From an uncultured Dehalococcoidales bacterium (GTDB lineage: Bacteria > Chloroflexota > Dehalococcoidia > GIF9 > AB-539-J10), in the NCBI GenBank assembly GCA_964633085.1, contig CAZWDC010000019.1, positions 1 through 43,651 of the forward strand: DNA of 43,651 nucleotides, written 5' to 3'. This document shows positions 8,463 through 26,979 of this stretch, piece after piece. A model generated the notes under the pieces. The model searched no databases. It had not been told where the DNA came from and was given only the letters and a program-made list of their open reading frames with translations. Numbering within the stretch: position 1 is the first letter of the stretch; the number at the start of each line of letters is the position of its first letter. Made by a program: the position numbers and the translations under genes.

Positions 8463-8864
8463 CTAGGTCCCTTTCTTCAGTTTCCGGTGTTCTAAGTAAT
8501 GCTCAATAGCCGATTTAAGCGCCTCCTCAGCCAGAACTGAGCAGTGCATCTTGACAGGCGGCAACCCGTCCAGAGCTTCGGCTACTGCCTTGTTGGAGAT
8601 TTTCAGAGCTTCTTCTATGCTTTTGCCTTTCACCATCTCCGTGACCATGGAGCTGGTGGCGATGGCTGCTCCACAGCCGAAGGTCTTGAACTTAGCGTCA
8701 ACAATGATACCATCCTTGACCTTAATGTAAAGCTCCATAATATCGCCGCACACCGGATTCCCGACCCGCCCCACACCGTCAGGGTTCTCCATCTCCCCGA
8801 CATTACGAGGATTCTTGAAGTGGTCCATCACCTTCTCGCTATATTGTGACCAGACGTCAGTCAT
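8463..8864 (-). CDS. nifU: NifU/IscU-type Fe-S cluster scaffold
   Basis: 133 aa. Motifs GNPVCGD, FKTFGCGAAIA and MHCS supply the three scaffold cysteines. Confidence 0.9.
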   Translation of the reverse strand: MTDVWSQYSEKVMDHFKNPRNVGEMENPDGVGRVGNPVCGDIMELYIKVKDGIIVDAKFKTFGCGAAIATSSMVTEMVKGKSIEEALKISNKAVAEALDGLPPVKMHCSVLAEEALKSAIEHYLEHRKLKKGT

Positions 8865-8869
8865 TTATT

Positions 8870-10042
8870 TCACTCCTGTCTTTGAGTTCTTAAGAGTGGA
8901 GACATGACCCTCAACCTAGCGACAATTCCTGGCAGAACCTCCAGCACTCGCTCTATATCGGCCTCAGCATTTTCTCGTCCCAGCGTAAACCTGAGCGAAC
9001 CATGAGCCTGCTCAGGGGGAACCCCCAGCGCCAGAAGGACATGGGATGGCTCCAGGCTTGCTGAGCTGCAGGCTGAGCCAGTGGAAGCACAGATACCTTC
9101 CAGATCAAGACTTAATAGCATGGACTCCCCTTCCACAAAATCCACACTGATATTGACATTGTTGGGCAGCCTTCTCCTAGGATGACCATTTAGTCGGATA
9201 CGGTCAATCTTCTCCCCGAGACCTTTAATTAGCTTATCCCGAAGATGAGCCAGCCGTTCTGCTTCCTTGCTCACCTCCTTACCGGCAAGCTCCACCGCCT
9301 TGCCTAACCCCACGATAGCCGGAACATTTTCCGTACCAGCGCGGCGACTCTTTTCCTGTTGCCCACCATGCATAAGGGAAACTAACCTAGTGCCCTTTCT
9401 GACATATATCGCCCCCACTCCTTTAGGTCCATAAAATTTGTGCCCTGAAATGGAGAGCAAGTCCACCTTGAGTTCATCCACATTCATTGGAATGTGCCCT
9501 ACTGTCTGCACAGCATCGCTGTGAAAATAGACCCCGGCTTCTCTGGCAATTTCACCTATTTCTTCTACAGGCTCTATCGTGCCCACCTCGTTGTTGGCAT
9601 GCATAACTGAGATGAGGATGGTTTTAGTGGTAATAGCTTTCTTAACATCCTGAGGGTCAACCAAGCCATGCCCGTCTACCGGGAGGTAAGTTATCTTGAA
9701 TCCCCTTTTCTCCAGGAACTTGCACGGCTCCAGCACGGCATGGTGCTCAATGGCGGTCGTGATGATGTGATTTCCCTTACGTTCATTAGCATATGCCACG
9801 CCCTTCAGGGCAAAATTATTCGCCTCGGTTCCTCCGCTGGTAAAAACAATCTCCTCACTCCGGGCGCCTATAAGTTTCGCTACTTTGGCTCTAGCTTCTT
9901 CTACAGCCCCCCTCGCTTCTTGCCCGTAAGAATGGATACTTGAAGGATTGCCAAAGGCCTCAGCAAAAAAAGGCAGCATGGCTTTCACCACCTCTGGATG
10001 AGTTAGTGTGGTAGACGCATGGTCCAGATATATCCTTCTCAT
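8870..10042 (-). CDS. nifS: Cysteine desulfurase (NifS/IscS class)
   Basis: 390 aa. It contains IYLDHASTT, the PLP lysine context SISGHKFYGPKG, and the active-site loop STGSACSS. Confidence 0.9.
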   Translation of the reverse strand: MRRIYLDHASTTLTHPEVVKAMLPFFAEAFGNPSSIHSYGQEARGAVEEARAKVAKLIGARSEEIVFTSGGTEANNFALKGVAYANERKGNHIITTAIEHHAVLEPCKFLEKRGFKITYLPVDGHGLVDPQDVKKAITTKTILISVMHANNEVGTIEPVEEIGEIAREAGVYFHSDAVQTVGHIPMNVDELKVDLLSISGHKFYGPKGVGAIYVRKGTRLVSLMHGGQQEKSRRAGTENVPAIVGLGKAVELAGKEVSKEAERLAHLRDKLIKGLGEKIDRIRLNGHPRRRLPNNVNISVDFVEGESMLLSLDLEGICASTGSACSSASLEPSHVLLALGVPPEQAHGSLRFTLGRENAEADIERVLEVLPGIVARLRVMSPLLRTQRQE

Positions 10043-10191
10043 CTAACCTTCTACTACCCCCAGCCCACTACAAAATTGCCCTGTCTCCACAAATCTAGAC
10101 AGAATTCTAACACTTAGGTATTTACCACTCAAATATCAAACTACACCTCTCTTACAATATAAGAATCCATAGAAGTGCCAGAGGCTTAAAA

Positions 10192-10331: not shown

Positions 10332-10430
10332 ATGTATAAGAAGAAAAGAATAGCGGCCTTAAAGCATCGGCGGCGGCAAAAGAAGCTCAAGGAAAAGATA
10401 AAAGCCCAGGCTCCGCCAAAGGAGAAATGA
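10332..10430 (+). CDS. Hypothetical 32-aa highly basic peptide, below the ORF-track size cut-off
   Basis: The ATG at 10332 gives MYKKKRIAALKHRRRQKKLKEKIKAQAPPKEK*. Its TGA overlaps the ATG of the downstream NTPase (ATGA at 10427-10430). GGAG precedes the start. There is no homology evidence. Confidence 0.3.
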   Translation: MYKKKRIAALKHRRRQKKLKEKIKAQAPPKEK

Positions 10431-10951
10431 AAAGAGCCCTCCTGTTGACCGGCAAGCCGGGCACAGGCAAAACTGCTCTCATCAAAGAAGCCCTGGCTAG
10501 GACCAAAGTCGAGGCAGGTGGCTTCTACACCGAAGAAATACGCACTGGGGGAATAAGGCAAGGGTTCAAGATTGTTACCCTTGATGGTCAAGAGGCGATA
10601 TTAGCTCATGTCAGCATCTCCAGCCCCTATCAGGTAAGCAAATACAAAGTAGATATCGACGCTTTGGATAGGGTTGGCGTCTCTGCTCTGCGTCAGGCGC
10701 TGAAAGAAAGCGACTTGATAGTTATTGATGAGATTGGCAAGATGGAGCTCCTGTCACCCCGCTTCAAAGAAGCTGCGATGCAAGCCATAAACAGTGGCAG
10801 GAAAGTCTTGGGCACCATAATGCTCAATCCCCATTCCTTTGCCGACCAGGTCAAATGCCATCCTGAAGTCGAAGTCTTCGTGGTAACCAGAGACAACCGC
10901 ACTCAGGTAATGAGGAAAGTCCTCAACTGGCTAATGGAAGAGGTGAACTGA
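10427..10951 (+). CDS. THEP1-family nucleoside-triphosphatase (COG1618)
   Basis: 174 aa. It has a P-loop (LLTGKPGTGKT), GGFYTEEIR...G, and Walker B LIVIDEIGKMEL. Confidence 0.8.
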   Translation: MKRALLLTGKPGTGKTALIKEALARTKVEAGGFYTEEIRTGGIRQGFKIVTLDGQEAILAHVSISSPYQVSKYKVDIDALDRVGVSALRQALKESDLIVIDEIGKMELLSPRFKEAAMQAINSGRKVLGTIMLNPHSFADQVKCHPEVEVFVVTRDNRTQVMRKVLNWLMEEVN

Positions 10952-16140: not shown

Positions 16141-16270
16141 AGAGCTTCTTGGTGACTCTAGCGGAGTGGAACCACCCGTTCCCATCCCGAACACGGAAGT
16201 GAAACGCTCCAGCGCAGACGATACTTGAGGGGGGACCCTCTGGGAAAATATGCCGTTGCCAAGAAGCTCT
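16141..16270 (+). rRNA. rrf: 5S ribosomal RNA (stand-alone; no 23S/16S nearby)
   Basis: It contains the universal 5S core ...CCACCCGTTCCCATCCCGAACACGGAAGTGAAACGCTCCAGCGC.GA.GATACTTG.... The ends agagcttcttggtgac and gttgccaagaagctct pair as helix I. The mature ends may be a few nt inside these limits. Confidence 0.9.
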
Positions 16271-22677: not shown

Positions 22678-22944
22678 ATGGCAACCGAGAAGTTCACTGT
22701 AGATGGAAGTGACGTAGTTGAGAAAATCAAGGAGCTGGTGCACCACGGAAATATCAGAAGGGTTCGCTTGATACACAAGGGACGCCCTCTGATAGACATC
22801 CCTCTGACAGTAGGTGTCGGTGTAGCGACGGTAACAGCCCTCGCAGCTCCAGTGCTGGCTGCGCTGGGAGCAATTGCTGCACTGGTCACAGAATGCACCA
22901 TCGAGGTGGAGAAAGTGGAAGACGCACCAGAAAAGAAGCAGTAG
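22678..22944 (+). CDS. DUF4342-like small protein
   Basis: The ATG at 22678 lies 9 nt after TAAGGAGG. The translation is MATEKFTVDGSDVVEKIKELVHHGNIRRVRLIHKGRPLIDIPLTVGV.... The track ORF from 22555 overlaps cinA and is over-extended. Confidence 0.65.
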   Translation: MATEKFTVDGSDVVEKIKELVHHGNIRRVRLIHKGRPLIDIPLTVGVGVATVTALAAPVLAALGAIAALVTECTIEVEKVEDAPEKKQ

Positions 22945-22987: not shown

Positions 22988-24505
22988 ATGGCAACCTTCG
23001 ATACGGGTGAAATAAAGTCCAGAGCAAAGGCCAACTTTACTGATGCCTGGGTAGCTACGGGCAAGCTTATCCCCACTGGCACGGAAATCGTTCTCACGAA
23101 GAAAGGCACACCTCACCTTGTTCGGGAATTAATTCAGAAATCCCGCCGGATTCTATTAGACCTCGGTTTCGATGAGGTCGAGAACCTTACTATATTGCCC
23201 GATACTGATGTAGTCAAACAGTATGGGCCGGAAGCTCGAGTGATTCTCGACAGAGCTTTCTACTTAGCCGAACTGCCTCGCCCCGACATCGGTCTGAGCG
23301 CCAAAAGAATAGCCGAGATAAAGAAAATAGCTGAGGAAATCGACATCGAAAAGCTTCAGACAATTTTGAGAAACTACAAAAAAGGGGAAATCGAGGCCGA
23401 TAATCTCATCGAAGAGCTCATCGCCGGACTGAGCATCACGGATTACCAAGCTACGGAGCTCCTCGATAAAGTTTTCCCCGAATTGAAAGAACTAAAGCCC
23501 CTGCCCTCCAACAAGACCTTAAGAAGCCATATGACGGCTACTTGGTTTCATACATTAGCAGCATTGCAGTCCCGATGCAATCGGGACAGCTTCCCGGTCG
23601 CTCTATTCTCTGTGGGTCCCAGGTATCGCAACGAGCAAAGAGAAGATGCTCGGCATTTGCGAGTCCACCACTCAGCCTCTATCGTGGTCATGGATTCTGA
23701 AATGTCTTTAGATGCGGGTAGGGCGATTACCAAGAATATCATGCAGCAATATGGTTTTTCCGACATCAAATTTGAGACCAAGATAGCAACGTCCAAATAT
23801 TATGCGCCGGGACAAGAGCAGGAGGTCTTCGTCAAACATAAAGGAAACTGGCTCGAGATAGCGGACATTGGAATGTATTCGCCGGTAGCGCTAGCGAATT
23901 TCGACATTAAATACCCAGTATTCAACGCCGGCTTTGGCATTGAGCGGCTGGGAATGCTTATCTATGAAGTAGACGATATCAGGAAGCTAGCCTACCCACA
24001 ATTTACCATCGTTGAGTATTCGGATGAAGAGATAGCCGAATCCATCACCTATATCGCCAGCCCTCAGACTGCTCGAGGGCAAGAAATAGCCAAAGCGATC
24101 GAGGAAACAGCCCGCAAATACAAAGACGAGATTGCTCCCTGCGAATTCTTGGCCTGGAAAGACGAATCTATTGAGGTGAAGGTTGTAGAAACGGAAGCTG
24201 GCAAGAGACTAATTGGCCCGGCTGGTTTCAACGAAATCTGTGTCGCCAATGGGACTATCTATAGCGATGTTGTGCCCTCAGGAGTATATACGGGGATAAA
24301 CTACATGCGTGCTATTGCCATGGGTGCCGCCGCAGCAATAGAAAGCAGCAACTATAACTTAATTTATCAGGTGAAGGGAGTAAGACATCTTTCTGACCTT
24401 AATCTCCAGATTCCCGAGGCTGTACGACAGCATATTGAAGGGCAGCAGAAGAAAATAGGAGTCGGTGGGGCAGTATTCGTGACTATAGATGTGAAGAAAC
24501 TCTAA
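22988..24505 (+). CDS. sepS: O-phosphoseryl-tRNA(Cys) synthetase (SepRS)
   Basis: About 505 aa from the ATG at 22988. There are long collinear matches to archaeal SepRS as I recall it: ...YKKGEIEADNLIEEL..., VFPELKELKP...TLRSHMT, PRYRNEQREDARHL, SKYYAPGQEQEVF, and FGIERLGMLIYEVDDIRKLAYPQF. Confidence 0.85.
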   Translation: MATFDTGEIKSRAKANFTDAWVATGKLIPTGTEIVLTKKGTPHLVRELIQKSRRILLDLGFDEVENLTILPDTDVVKQYGPEARVILDRAFYLAELPRPDIGLSAKRIAEIKKIAEEIDIEKLQTILRNYKKGEIEADNLIEELIAGLSITDYQATELLDKVFPELKELKPLPSNKTLRSHMTATWFHTLAALQSRCNRDSFPVALFSVGPRYRNEQREDARHLRVHHSASIVVMDSEMSLDAGRAITKNIMQQYGFSDIKFETKIATSKYYAPGQEQEVFVKHKGNWLEIADIGMYSPVALANFDIKYPVFNAGFGIERLGMLIYEVDDIRKLAYPQFTIVEYSDEEIAESITYIASPQTARGQEIAKAIEETARKYKDEIAPCEFLAWKDESIEVKVVETEAGKRLIGPAGFNEICVANGTIYSDVVPSGVYTGINYMRAIAMGAAAAIESSNYNLIYQVKGVRHLSDLNLQIPEAVRQHIEGQQKKIGVGGAVFVTIDVKKL

Positions 24506-24566
24506 ATACTAATATCTAAATCCTAATGTACTAGGATAACAAGATATTGTAATGTGAGGGAACACT

Positions 24567-24899
24567 ATGGATATCAAGATGTTGCCAGTATATTTTGTGA
24601 TTGGCGGAGCTGTAGTCGCTGCCGCAACTTACTTCGGAAGTCACGCAAAAAGTCTGCTGGCGGCATTTATTGCCTTCTTCCCCGCTGTCAGCGTGGTAAC
24701 TATTTGCAGTATATACCTGGCTAGTGGAACACAAGCTGCTGTTTCCTATACCAAAAGTATGCTAATACTATTGCCACCCTGGGTGCTCTATGTCATTGCT
24801 GTGATGTTTCTTTTGCCCCGCATTGGCTTAGCCGGCTCACTCCTTGTGGGCGTGGCAACATATTCGGTAATAGCACTCCTGATCATGCTGTTAAGGTAG
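24567..24899 (+). CDS. Small integral membrane protein (about 4 TM), unknown function
   Basis: 110 aa, almost entirely hydrophobic. It is located between sepS and pscS. Confidence 0.55.
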   Translation: MDIKMLPVYFVIGGAVVAAATYFGSHAKSLLAAFIAFFPAVSVVTICSIYLASGTQAAVSYTKSMLILLPPWVLYVIAVMFLLPRIGLAGSLLVGVATYSVIALLIMLLR

Positions 24900-25037
24900 C
24901 CTCACACTACCCAAATATTCCTGAACTCATCTAAGGGTAAACATTTGGATTTTTGTTCGACTTCTTGTTAGAATTGGCTCAGTTTGATTCTAGGATTTCG
25001 CGGTTGCCTTAAGTAATAAAGGTCAAGATTTGGGATA

Positions 25038-26141
25038 ATGTCATTGCGAAGGGAACATAAAGCGCTTATTAACCTCATGCCTTTACAAACAGGTGGCATG
25101 CTCACCGAGGCTGCCAAGGAGGCTTTGGTGGAATTCGGGGATGGATATTCTGTGTGCGACTTTTGCCAAGGAGTTTTATGTAATATAACCAACCCCCCCA
25201 TCCGAGACTTCGTCCAGAACCTCCTACCTCGCTTTTTGGGCTGTGAAGTTGCCACTATAACCCATGGAGCCCGAGAAGCTAAATTCATGGTGATGCATTC
25301 ACTAGCTAAGCCTGGGGATTCGATTTTAGTTGATGCCAACAGGCATTATACAACGGTCGTGGCTGCCGAAAGGGTGGGATTGAACATAATCGAAGTGCTT
25401 CATTCCGGACATCCGGAATTTAGAGTCGACGTCAACGAATATGAGCCACTCATAAAAAAACATGCCCCTAAGCTGATTCTATTGACTTATCCTGATGGCA
25501 ATTATGGAAATCTTCCTGACGCCAGAAAGTTAGGAGAAATCGCTCAAGAATACAATATCCCTTATATCCTTAACGGGGCATATGCTGTAGGCAGAATGCC
25601 GATAAGCATGGAAGAGATGAAGGCTGATTTTATTATTGGCAGTGGGCACAAGAGCATGGCCTCGGCAGGACCTGTAGGGGTATTGGGAATGAAGAAGAAA
25701 TGGGAAGAGATAGTGTTGAGAAAATCGGGCATACATAGCAACAAAGAGATTGAACTCCTGGGTTGCACTGTAAGGGGCGTCCCTTTGATAACACTCATAG
25801 CTTCCTTTCCCCAGGTAAAAGAAAGAGTTCAGCATTGGGATGAACAGGTGTCTAAGGCACAGTGGTTTTCTGCCGAACTTGAGAAATTAGGCTTTATACA
25901 ATTGGGGGAAAAACCACATAGGCATGACTTGCTGCACTTTGACGCCCCGGCACTCTATGAAATCTCCAAGCGAGTCCGAGAGAGGGGATACTTCCTCTAC
26001 AAAGAATTAAAGGAAAGAGGCATCTGGGGACCACAGCCAGGTCTGGCCCGGTCTTTCAAACTATCCACCTTTGCTGCTGATAGAGAGCAGCTAGGGTTGG
26101 TTATAGATTCCTTCAAGGCTATCCTAAATAAATATAGTTAG
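25038..26141 (+). CDS. pscS: Sep-tRNA:Cys-tRNA synthase (SepCysS)
   Basis: 367 aa. The translation contains INLMPLQTGGMLTEAAKEALVEFGDGYSVCDFCQG, the PLP lysine in GSGHKSMA, and a third conserved Cys in LLGCTVRG. Confidence 0.85.
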   Translation: MSLRREHKALINLMPLQTGGMLTEAAKEALVEFGDGYSVCDFCQGVLCNITNPPIRDFVQNLLPRFLGCEVATITHGAREAKFMVMHSLAKPGDSILVDANRHYTTVVAAERVGLNIIEVLHSGHPEFRVDVNEYEPLIKKHAPKLILLTYPDGNYGNLPDARKLGEIAQEYNIPYILNGAYAVGRMPISMEEMKADFIIGSGHKSMASAGPVGVLGMKKKWEEIVLRKSGIHSNKEIELLGCTVRGVPLITLIASFPQVKERVQHWDEQVSKAQWFSAELEKLGFIQLGEKPHRHDLLHFDAPALYEISKRVRERGYFLYKELKERGIWGPQPGLARSFKLSTFAADREQLGLVIDSFKAILNKYS

Positions 26142-26791
26142 CAGACCTGATAAAAAATCTCGGGGTGTCTTTCAGCGTGGGCTTTTTTCAACTGTTGGAA
26201 AGATGCTTGAAAGGGCAGAGAGGTGATATTATCCGTGCTCATGATTATAGCGTCCTCTCCGTCGCTTGAATAATACCTCAGGCGCCTCCCCACTACTTGG
26301 AAGCCATATTTTTTATAGAGTTCCTGAGCTATTTCGTTAGAAGCACGCACTTCCAAAGTGACCACGTTAGCATTCAATATCTGTGCTAGTTCAATGGTTG
26401 CGATGAGCAAACCTTCGCCTATGCCCAGCCGACGATAACCATTCCTGACACCAATGGCAATGATATGTGCCTCCTGCAACATCATCCAGAAACCAGTAAA
26501 GCCAACTATGTTTTCGGAGATACTAAGATGACGCTCACCAGTGAAGAGCCGTTTGAACCAAGGCAGCTTCAGCGCCGCTTGCGCTTCAGATTCTGAGGCA
26601 TCCCTTTTCTTACAAGCCACTACATAACGAACGGACGGATTATTAAGATCCTGTTTATAGGCTGATTGTGAGCGAAACACCCATTCACCAGGGAAAGCCT
26701 CCCTGTCAATCTGAACTACCTCGGGGATATCCTCATACCTCATAGGGCGAATAACATAACGTATGTCTGGCATCAATTGAAATTTTAGCAT
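26138..26791 (-). CDS. GNAT N-acetyltransferase (RimI-like)
   Basis: It has the acetyl-CoA motif RRLGIGEGLL and NEIAQELYKKYGF. The start is uncertain: ATG at 26791 or 26773. The track ORF reaches 26914 through repeat-like sequence. Confidence 0.7.
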   Translation of the reverse strand: MLKFQLMPDIRYVIRPMRYEDIPEVVQIDREAFPGEWVFRSQSAYKQDLNNPSVRYVVACKKRDASESEAQAALKLPWFKRLFTGERHLSISENIVGFTGFWMMLQEAHIIAIGVRNGYRRLGIGEGLLIATIELAQILNANVVTLEVRASNEIAQELYKKYGFQVVGRRLRYYSSDGEDAIIMSTDNITSLPFQASFQQLKKAHAERHPEIFYQVC

Positions 26792-26979
26792 AGTATCGGG
26801 GGTTTTAAGCCTAATCCCTTGTCTTACTGCGGCAAAAAATTGAGCGCCCCTGCCCACACGCCTTTCTGCCTTCAAAACCGCATTCCAGGGCGTAAGTCCC
26901 ACGAATAGCTTCAACGAAAACCATCATTCTGAACTCTTCCCATCCTAGCATCCTGAGACCTTCACTTTTGTCTTCACAA

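Follow-up and report, generated by a model that had tools for sequence, protein, structure and literature searches.

A probable Chloroflexi-type SepRS-SepCysS operon with a small membrane protein gene in its spacer in an uncultured Dehalococcoidales bacterium

The DNA analysed here, referred to in its full length of 43,651 nt as the window, is a contig from an uncultured Dehalococcoidales bacterium (CAZWDC010000019.1; contig C19 of the metagenome-assembled genome, or MAG, labelled G000, which comprises 551 kb in 54 contigs at a stated completeness of 66%). It encodes SepRS (O-phosphoseryl-tRNA synthetase) as well as SepCysS (Sep-tRNA:Cys-tRNA synthase), the two enzymes of tRNA-dependent cysteine synthesis, and, between their genes, a membrane protein of 110 amino acids (aa). 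This locus is very probably a bacterial SepRS-SepCysS operon of the Chloroflexi/Dehalococcoidia lineage. The genome most likely lacks cysteinyl-tRNA synthetase (CysRS), CysK, and CysE, and the 110-aa gene is a passenger that lies outside the pathway and does not substitute for the adaptor SepCysE. Comparisons were made with a set of 52 genomes of the genus (labels G###) and with a single genome from each GTDB species, scanned with the SepRS protein as the query, which yielded 78 loci (labels L###). The locus comprises the following features.

22988-24505, + strand: sepS, encoding SepRS, 505 aa, of the bacterial (Chloroflexi) lineage (TIGR00470, 2DU3 alignment)
24567-24899, + strand: gene for a 110-aa four-helix membrane protein (GlpM/DUF3147-like), a lineage-specific insertion (hydrophobic segments, names of homologues)
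24945-24974, + strand: putative promoter-like element TTGGAT-18-TAGAAT upstream of the SepCysS gene (spacer alignment)
25038-26141, + strand: gene for SepCysS, 367 aa, of clade I/bacterial type and without a SepCysSN domain (TIGR02539, 2E7I/2E7J)

Identity and lineage of the two enzymes

All three co-directional open reading frames (ORFs) proposed in the initial annotation, of 505, 110, and 367 aa, are present. According to the ORF list, the ATG of sepS lies at 22988, and the SepRS and SepCysS genes are 532 nt apart, both on the + strand. The 505-aa protein scored 441.4 bits on TIGR00470 (curated cutoff, 380.65) over profile positions 6 to 530 of 533, compared to 86 to 87 bits on PheRS-alpha models, and the 367-aa protein scored 530.7 bits on TIGR02539 (curated cutoff, 365.25), compared to only 45.5 bits on SufS. 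The original calls of SepRS and SepCysS thus hold against PheRS-alpha-like proteins and generic class V aminotransferases, respectively. For the two enzymes, Pfam recognized no more than a generic class II core and SepSecS/class V folds. Residues 4 to 501 of SepRS align with residues 3 to 530 of Archaeoglobus fulgidus SepRS (2DU3) at an E value of 1e-108, with the class II core and the anticodon-binding domain at the C terminus both collinear, and matches to the SepRS proteins of Methanocaldococcus jannaschii and Methanococcus maripaludis reached E values of 1e-98 to 1e-93. Five residues of the A. fulgidus enzyme, H186 and T188 (in RSHMT), S231 and S233 (in SAS), and N325 (in PVFNAG), are all identical in the SepRS alignment (5/5). 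Residues 4 to 367 of SepCysS align with A. fulgidus SepCysS1 (2E7I/2E7J) at an E value of 3.4e-141. The motifs VCDFCQG, GSGHKSMA, and GCTVRG, by which the protein had been recognized, are present in its translation, and K209 (the pyridoxal phosphate, or PLP, lysine), C39, C42, C247, R79, H103, and Y104 of the A. fulgidus protein are all identical. Three conserved cysteines of SepCysS are stated to be important (PMC5424206).

Mukai et al. 2017 (mBio, PMC5424206) described the SepRS-SepCysS operon as common to bacteria and confined SepCysE and SepCysSn to archaeal groups. In that study, bacterial SepRS is distinguished by replacement of Ile444 with a hydrophilic residue and loss of the following helix, and bacterial/clade I SepCysS by a missing loop at ~144-147 and the lack of an 8-residue insertion at 234/235 (PMC5424206). 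When aligned to the solved structures, both proteins of the window carry these bacterial-lineage deletions. In SepRS, the 8 residues that correspond to A. fulgidus I444-R451 are missing ahead of an Asp, and with them Ile444 and the following helix (the m1G37-recognition motif), while SepCysS has a 4-residue loop gap at A. fulgidus ~140-143 and no gap at 234/235. All 78 loci retrieved with the SepRS query (78/78) are from Dehalococcoidia/Chloroflexota MAGs. Chloroflexi bacterium RBG_13_51_36 is among the sources, as is Dehalococcoidia bacterium CG2_30_46_9; both were named as SepRS carriers in 2017, and proteins of RBG_13_51_36 appear in the supplementary alignments of that paper (PMC5424206). 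SepRS is 85 to 92% identical to its congeneric counterparts (92% to that of G045) and 85% identical to that of RBG_13_51_36, and SepCysS is 86% identical to its RBG_13_51_36 counterpart. Four bacterial SepRS clades are distinguished in the 2022 update.

The Chloroflexi pair that was assayed, JGI24721J44947_1000093732/33, charges and converts tRNA-Cys in vitro and is active in Escherichia coli without SepCysE (PMC5424206). By homology to this assayed Chloroflexi enzyme, SepRS of the window would charge tRNA-Cys with O-phosphoserine. Since the bacterial operon has been published and biochemically assayed, the system as such is already known. Its lineage, gene order, deletions in SepRS and SepCysS, three cysteines plus PLP lysine, and lack of SepCysE/SepCysSn are shared with the Chloroflexi operon of Mukai et al., whereas the 110-aa membrane gene in a 532-nt spacer sets the locus apart from the usual arrangement, with a spacer of a few tens of nucleotides. 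With A. fulgidus SepRS and SepCysS1, the pair shares full-length collinearity, active-site residues, and a clade I SepCysS without SepCysSN, but differs in its bacterial host, in the 8- and 4-residue deletions of SepRS and SepCysS, and in a cognate tRNA-Cys with A37 rather than m1G37.

The two-step chemistry is also that of the class I methanogen transsulfursome (SepRS-SepCysE-SepCysS; 5X6B/5X6C, 3WKR), and CysRS is probably absent here too, as in many methanogens. Unlike in that complex, no homologue of SepCysE or SepCysSn is seen, and SepCysS lacks an N-terminal extension. The initial annotation had noted that no SepCysE-like gene accompanies the enzymes, which agrees with our findings: the ORF preceding SepCysS encodes four transmembrane (TM) helices, and the start of SepCysS coincides with A. 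fulgidus residue 3. Thus, neither a SepCysE or SepCysSn homologue at the locus nor an N-terminal domain on SepCysS was found; no genome-wide SepCysE profile search was made. By analogy to bacterial and clade I SepCysS, which work without SepCysE (PMC5424206), nothing would be needed to replace it, and the pathway would run without either adaptor, SepCysE or SepCysSn, like other systems of the bacterial and clade I types.

CysRS, tRNA-Cys, and the cysteine island

No cysS, cysK, or cysE gene or gene fragment was detected in the assembled 551 kb of G000. In its closest relative, G045, cysS is the close upstream neighbour of an NTPase gene, the homologue of which occupies positions 10427-10951 of the window, and the same cysS-NTPase adjacency is found in G018. 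The DNA of G045 matches the window at 10411-10047 and then at 10033-9588, and the intervening 12.3 kb has no counterpart anywhere in G000. This 12.3-kb island (L040, G045:C42:123000-136000), located between nifS and the NTPase gene, encodes CysRS (530 bits), CysK (480 bits), and CysE (245 bits), as well as an Rrf2/CymR-like regulator, Thi4, a cystathionine lyase, an ABC transporter, a ThrC-like protein, a NIL-like 80-aa protein, and ThiF. The corresponding site in the window is the following.

10033-10047, no strand assigned: junction lacking the cysS-cysK-cysE island that the nearest relative carries (comparison with G045 DNA)

The island-free nifS/NTPase junction recurs in G022 and G052 (95% complete), both of which lack CysRS. 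Because the window lacks the island on which the nearest relative carries the three genes, their absence from the whole genome is the most likely state; for CysRS taken by itself, we consider it likely that the organism lacks it. Without CysRS, CysK, and CysE, the operon would probably be the sole route to cysteine and Cys-tRNA, and the organism would probably depend on the SepRS-SepCysS pathway alone.

Across the genus set, SepRS was found in 38 genomes, SepCysS in 40, and CysRS over the cutoff in 27, with fragments in two more. SepRS and CysRS occur together in 18/52 genomes. CysRS is present without SepRS in 11/52, four of which have SepCysS at contig edges or as fragments, and SepRS is present without CysRS in 20/52. 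Eight genomes of the last group are at least 90% complete (G046, G052, G054, G017, G058, G060, G062, and G066). CysK and CysE exceeded the cutoff in G004 but not in G060, G058, G052, or G000. In G004, both are encoded beside one of two cysS copies, in a cysS-cysK-cysE module like that of G045, and the second cysS copy is located on another contig. In the sampled other families of the order, no SepRS was found. Weak matches to the sepS profile occur at G013:C41:89260-89448 and G017:C39:25782-25970, inside 536-aa frames that contain one in-frame TAG.

Alternatively, the genome might encode a canonical CysRS, with or without CysK and CysE, outside the assembled contigs, with SepRS-SepCysS as a supplementary source of cysteine. 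The co-occurrence of SepRS and CysRS in 18 congeners, including G045, speaks for such a double supply, as do the second cysS copy of G004, on another contig, and an assembled share of the genome that is well under two thirds. However, the site of the G045 island and of the adjacent cysS of G018 is contiguous here without the island, the junction resembles that of CysRS-less congeners, among them G052 at 95% completeness, and not even a fragment of cysS, cysK, or cysE occurs in the 551 kb. We therefore regard two coexisting routes as rather unlikely.

The cognate tRNA was studied in the congeners. One tRNA-Cys(GCA) each was found in G058, G060, and G004, in a tRNA gene cluster with the order Ala-Arg-Trp-Leu-Gly-Cys-Leu (the G004 contig ends after Trp). 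This tRNA-Cys is of bacterial type, with U73 and A37 (anticodon loop CUGCAAA), and is identical in G004, which has CysRS, and in G060, which does not. Its A37 agrees with the published acceptance of A37 tRNA-Cys by bacterial SepRS (PMC5424206; 2022 update). Accordingly placed in the proposed pathway, SepRS would charge the organism's single bacterial-type tRNA-Cys, with a GCA anticodon, A37, and U73, with O-phosphoserine. An additional pattern match at G000:C8:7310-7339, also present in G045 and G004, was rejected as a tRNA-Cys gene, as it lies in coding sequence and was called by neither ARAGORN nor Rfam, and we attribute it to chance.

Several observations weigh against the reading of the locus as the operon on which this organism depends. 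None of the 20 tRNA genes of the MAG is a tRNA-Cys gene; since every tRNA of the Ala-Arg-Trp-Leu-Gly-Cys-Leu cluster is missing, this lack is an assembly effect. The MAG comprises 551 kb, compared to 1.3 to 2.2 Mb in congeners that are at least 90% complete, and cysS could lie in the unassembled part; the marker-based completeness of 66% probably overstates the assembled fraction, which makes absence calls for G000 weak. The activity of both enzymes is predicted from that of their homologues. Furthermore, we take H186, T188, S231, S233, and N325 to form the phosphoserine pocket of the 2007 structures, and a literature search gave no confirmation of this role. Finally, G045 carries the same insertion between the two enzyme genes and has CysRS, so that the insertion does not track CysRS loss.

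A NifS-like cysteine desulfurase and NifU are encoded at positions 8463-10042 of the window, on the - strand. They form an Fe-S assembly pair that draws sulfur from free cysteine. Together with the probable lack of a cysteine synthase, this pair raises the question of the source of free cysteine in this genome.

The 110-aa membrane protein gene and the spacer

Four hydrophobic segments were found in the 110-aa protein, consistent with the earlier prediction of roughly four TM helices. The protein contains five Lys/Arg and one Asp/Glu, is nearly all TM helix, and has no soluble domain. Its 307 database homologues are named at their source as "GlpM family" or "DUF3147 domain-containing protein". 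Against PF11345 (DUF3147), it reached an E value of 0.0019 and 19 bits, under the gathering score of 23.6, and against PF06942 an E value of 0.21. For gene copies in the spacer position, the ratio of nonsynonymous to synonymous substitution rates (dN/dS) was 0.06 to 0.20, a range that leaves out the G045 rows, which were extracted one codon out of register. A GAGGG Shine-Dalgarno-like motif lies 8 nt 5' of the ORF. The 110-aa ORF is a real gene under purifying selection.

A survey of homologous loci for co-occurrence of this ORF, as suggested in the initial annotation, located it in the spacer in one of the 78 GTDB loci (L122, corresponding to G045); at L064 and L066, the spacer extends past the fetched flank. 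It was missing from the spacer in all of the congeneric SepRS loci first examined (11/11). Within the genus, G000, G045, G054, and G060 carry it in the spacer, and so do three metagenome contigs, whose copies are 79 to 89% identical. For 68 GTDB species, the fetched locus contained both enzyme genes; measured as the distance between tblastn-aligned gene ends, the spacer is at most 90 nt long in 52 of them, 91 to 300 nt in 13, and longer than 300 nt in three. A 73%-identical homologue of the 110-aa protein occurs in an unrelated context. In about 16 other genomes of the genus, a ~60%-identical paralogue is encoded at a different place, which in every case is immediately downstream of a conserved 297-aa gene. 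This gene (MTKVALVSTKDRGKGV..., at L020-L025) is presumably DUF362-like. G054 and G060 hold both the spacer copy and the ~60%-identical paralogue; given these genomes and the paralogue elsewhere in the genus, the spacer copy is an extra paralogue. Its position between the two enzyme genes is a recent, narrow event of a small subclade.

Other genes have entered the same spacer. A CDF cation-efflux gene with a Cys-rich C terminus lies between the SepRS and SepCysS genes in L071, G058 (L140, G058:C33:144500-151500), and G060, and a SpoIIM-like membrane gene is also inserted in the G058 spacer. In G060, which is 99% complete (L036, G060:C37:12500-23000), 5.2 kb separate the two enzyme genes. This insert encodes the CDF efflux protein, a YedE-type "Sulphur transport" protein, a class V aminotransferase, a Se/S-carrier-like protein (PF11823), a 68-aa ORF, and the 110-aa protein. 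Loss of SepRS in G060, where it seemed at first absent beside SepCysS, was rejected, as SepRS lies 5.2 kb away across the insertion. Since unrelated genes (CDF and SpoIIM) are inserted at the same spot in other species, the spacer appears as an insertion hot spot.

Between the 110-aa ORF and the SepCysS gene, the window contains its single exact match to TTGGAT-18-TAGAAT; in the spacer alignment, G045 retains this element and the JGI contig part of it. Scanning for consensus promoters gave no convincing result between the SepRS and SepCysS genes, and this element was not called; judging from its conservation in the spacer alignment, it may be a promoter of the SepCysS gene. In the same alignment, SepCysS starts 13 codons later in this sublineage than in congeners without the insertion. 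We propose that the normally very short spacer received, in this species and some few of its close relatives, a paralogue of a small membrane gene that occurs genus-wide, and that this insert seemingly carried along a ribosome-binding site of its own as well as a promoter-like element for SepCysS.

It could be argued that the 110-aa protein is rather a lineage-specific accessory of the pathway, which tethers the enzymes to the membrane or supplies SepCysS with sulfur and thereby stands in for SepCysE. Flanked by the two enzyme genes and codirectional with them, the gene evolves under purifying selection; its arrangement persists between species at 79 to 93% identity, and the G060 spacer also holds genes for a YedE-type sulfur transporter, a class V aminotransferase, and a Se/S-carrier-like protein. 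Yet nearly all of the 78 operon-bearing Dehalococcoidia species lack the gene in the spacer, a paralogue is found in an unrelated context, and the unrelated CDF and SpoIIM genes at the same spot point to an insertion hot spot. As the protein consists almost wholly of membrane helices and has no soluble domain, it would be unable to bridge two soluble enzymes in the way SepCysE does. Moreover, no partner is needed for Chloroflexi SepRS and SepCysS to function in vitro and in E. coli (PMC5424206). An accessory role is therefore improbable. Equally doubtful is the broader proposal that the spacer of this genus is a landing site which recruits membrane and sulfur-trafficking genes for the pathway, such as those for the YedE-type transporter, the Se/S-carrier-like protein, and a cysteine-desulfurase-like enzyme of a congener, with the 110-aa protein acting in sulfur delivery to SepCysS or in its placement at the membrane. 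If true, it would mean that such recruitment takes place in bacteria that lost CysRS and CysK/CysE. We thus maintain that the 110-aa gene is a passenger.

Neighbouring genes and meaning for the genus

Two further genes flank the operon.

22678-22944, + strand: DUF4342 protein, 88 aa, a neighbour rather than a pathway component (PF14242, E value of 1.1e-27)
26138-26914, - strand: rimI-like N-acetyltransferase, the convergent downstream neighbour (TIGR01575, 105.8 bits)

The rimI-like gene is syntenic across nearly all related loci. The DUF4342 gene, 44 nt upstream of the SepRS gene and absent from the initial annotation, was considered as an analogue of SepCysE and rejected on several grounds. 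The protein has a long hydrophobic segment, and its AF2 structure model (pLDDT 70) is mixed alpha/beta with a hydrophobic helix and matches no PDB fold at an E value of 0.001 or below, SepCysE included. Furthermore, the gene is kept in G013, which is without SepRS, and lies upstream of SepRS only in closer relatives (28/78 loci). Co-occurrence with pyrrolysine was likewise rejected for this genome: PylS was not found in G000 and is present in only 2/52 genomes of the genus (G016 and G018).

The bacterial surroundings of the operon reported in the initial annotation are well supported. RuvB, RpoC, RpoB, and a PcrA/UvrD helicase all exceed their NCBIfam cutoffs by a wide margin, and 5S rRNA was identified by Rfam at 16148-16264. 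In agreement with the earlier reading, ARAGORN found no tRNA gene in the window. Although SepRS and SepCysS are classically archaeal, a mis-binned archaeal contig with an artefactual bacterial context is hardly conceivable, as rpoB, rpoC, ruvB, and 5S rRNA of bacterial type share one 43.6-kb contig with the operon, G+C content is even over the SepRS-SepCysS locus, and the synteny is repeated in dozens of independent Dehalococcoidia MAGs.

At the system level, our analysis adds little that is new, the bacterial Dehalococcoidia operon having been known and validated since 2017. The sulfur/selenium-trafficking cluster beside SepCysS in G060 provides a lead on the sulfur donor. The presence of a 12-kb cysteine island in some species and its absence from others within one genus is a modest comparative addition. 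The presence of CysRS in these bacteria is not discussed in Mukai 2017 (PMC5424206), and neither the 2017 nor the 2022 paper comments on reliance on the tRNA-dependent route alone. About 20 species of the genus, among them eight whose genomes reach 90% completeness or more, seemingly use this route alone, as many methanogens do, and the genus thus offers a natural comparison set for studying when bacteria give up CysRS.

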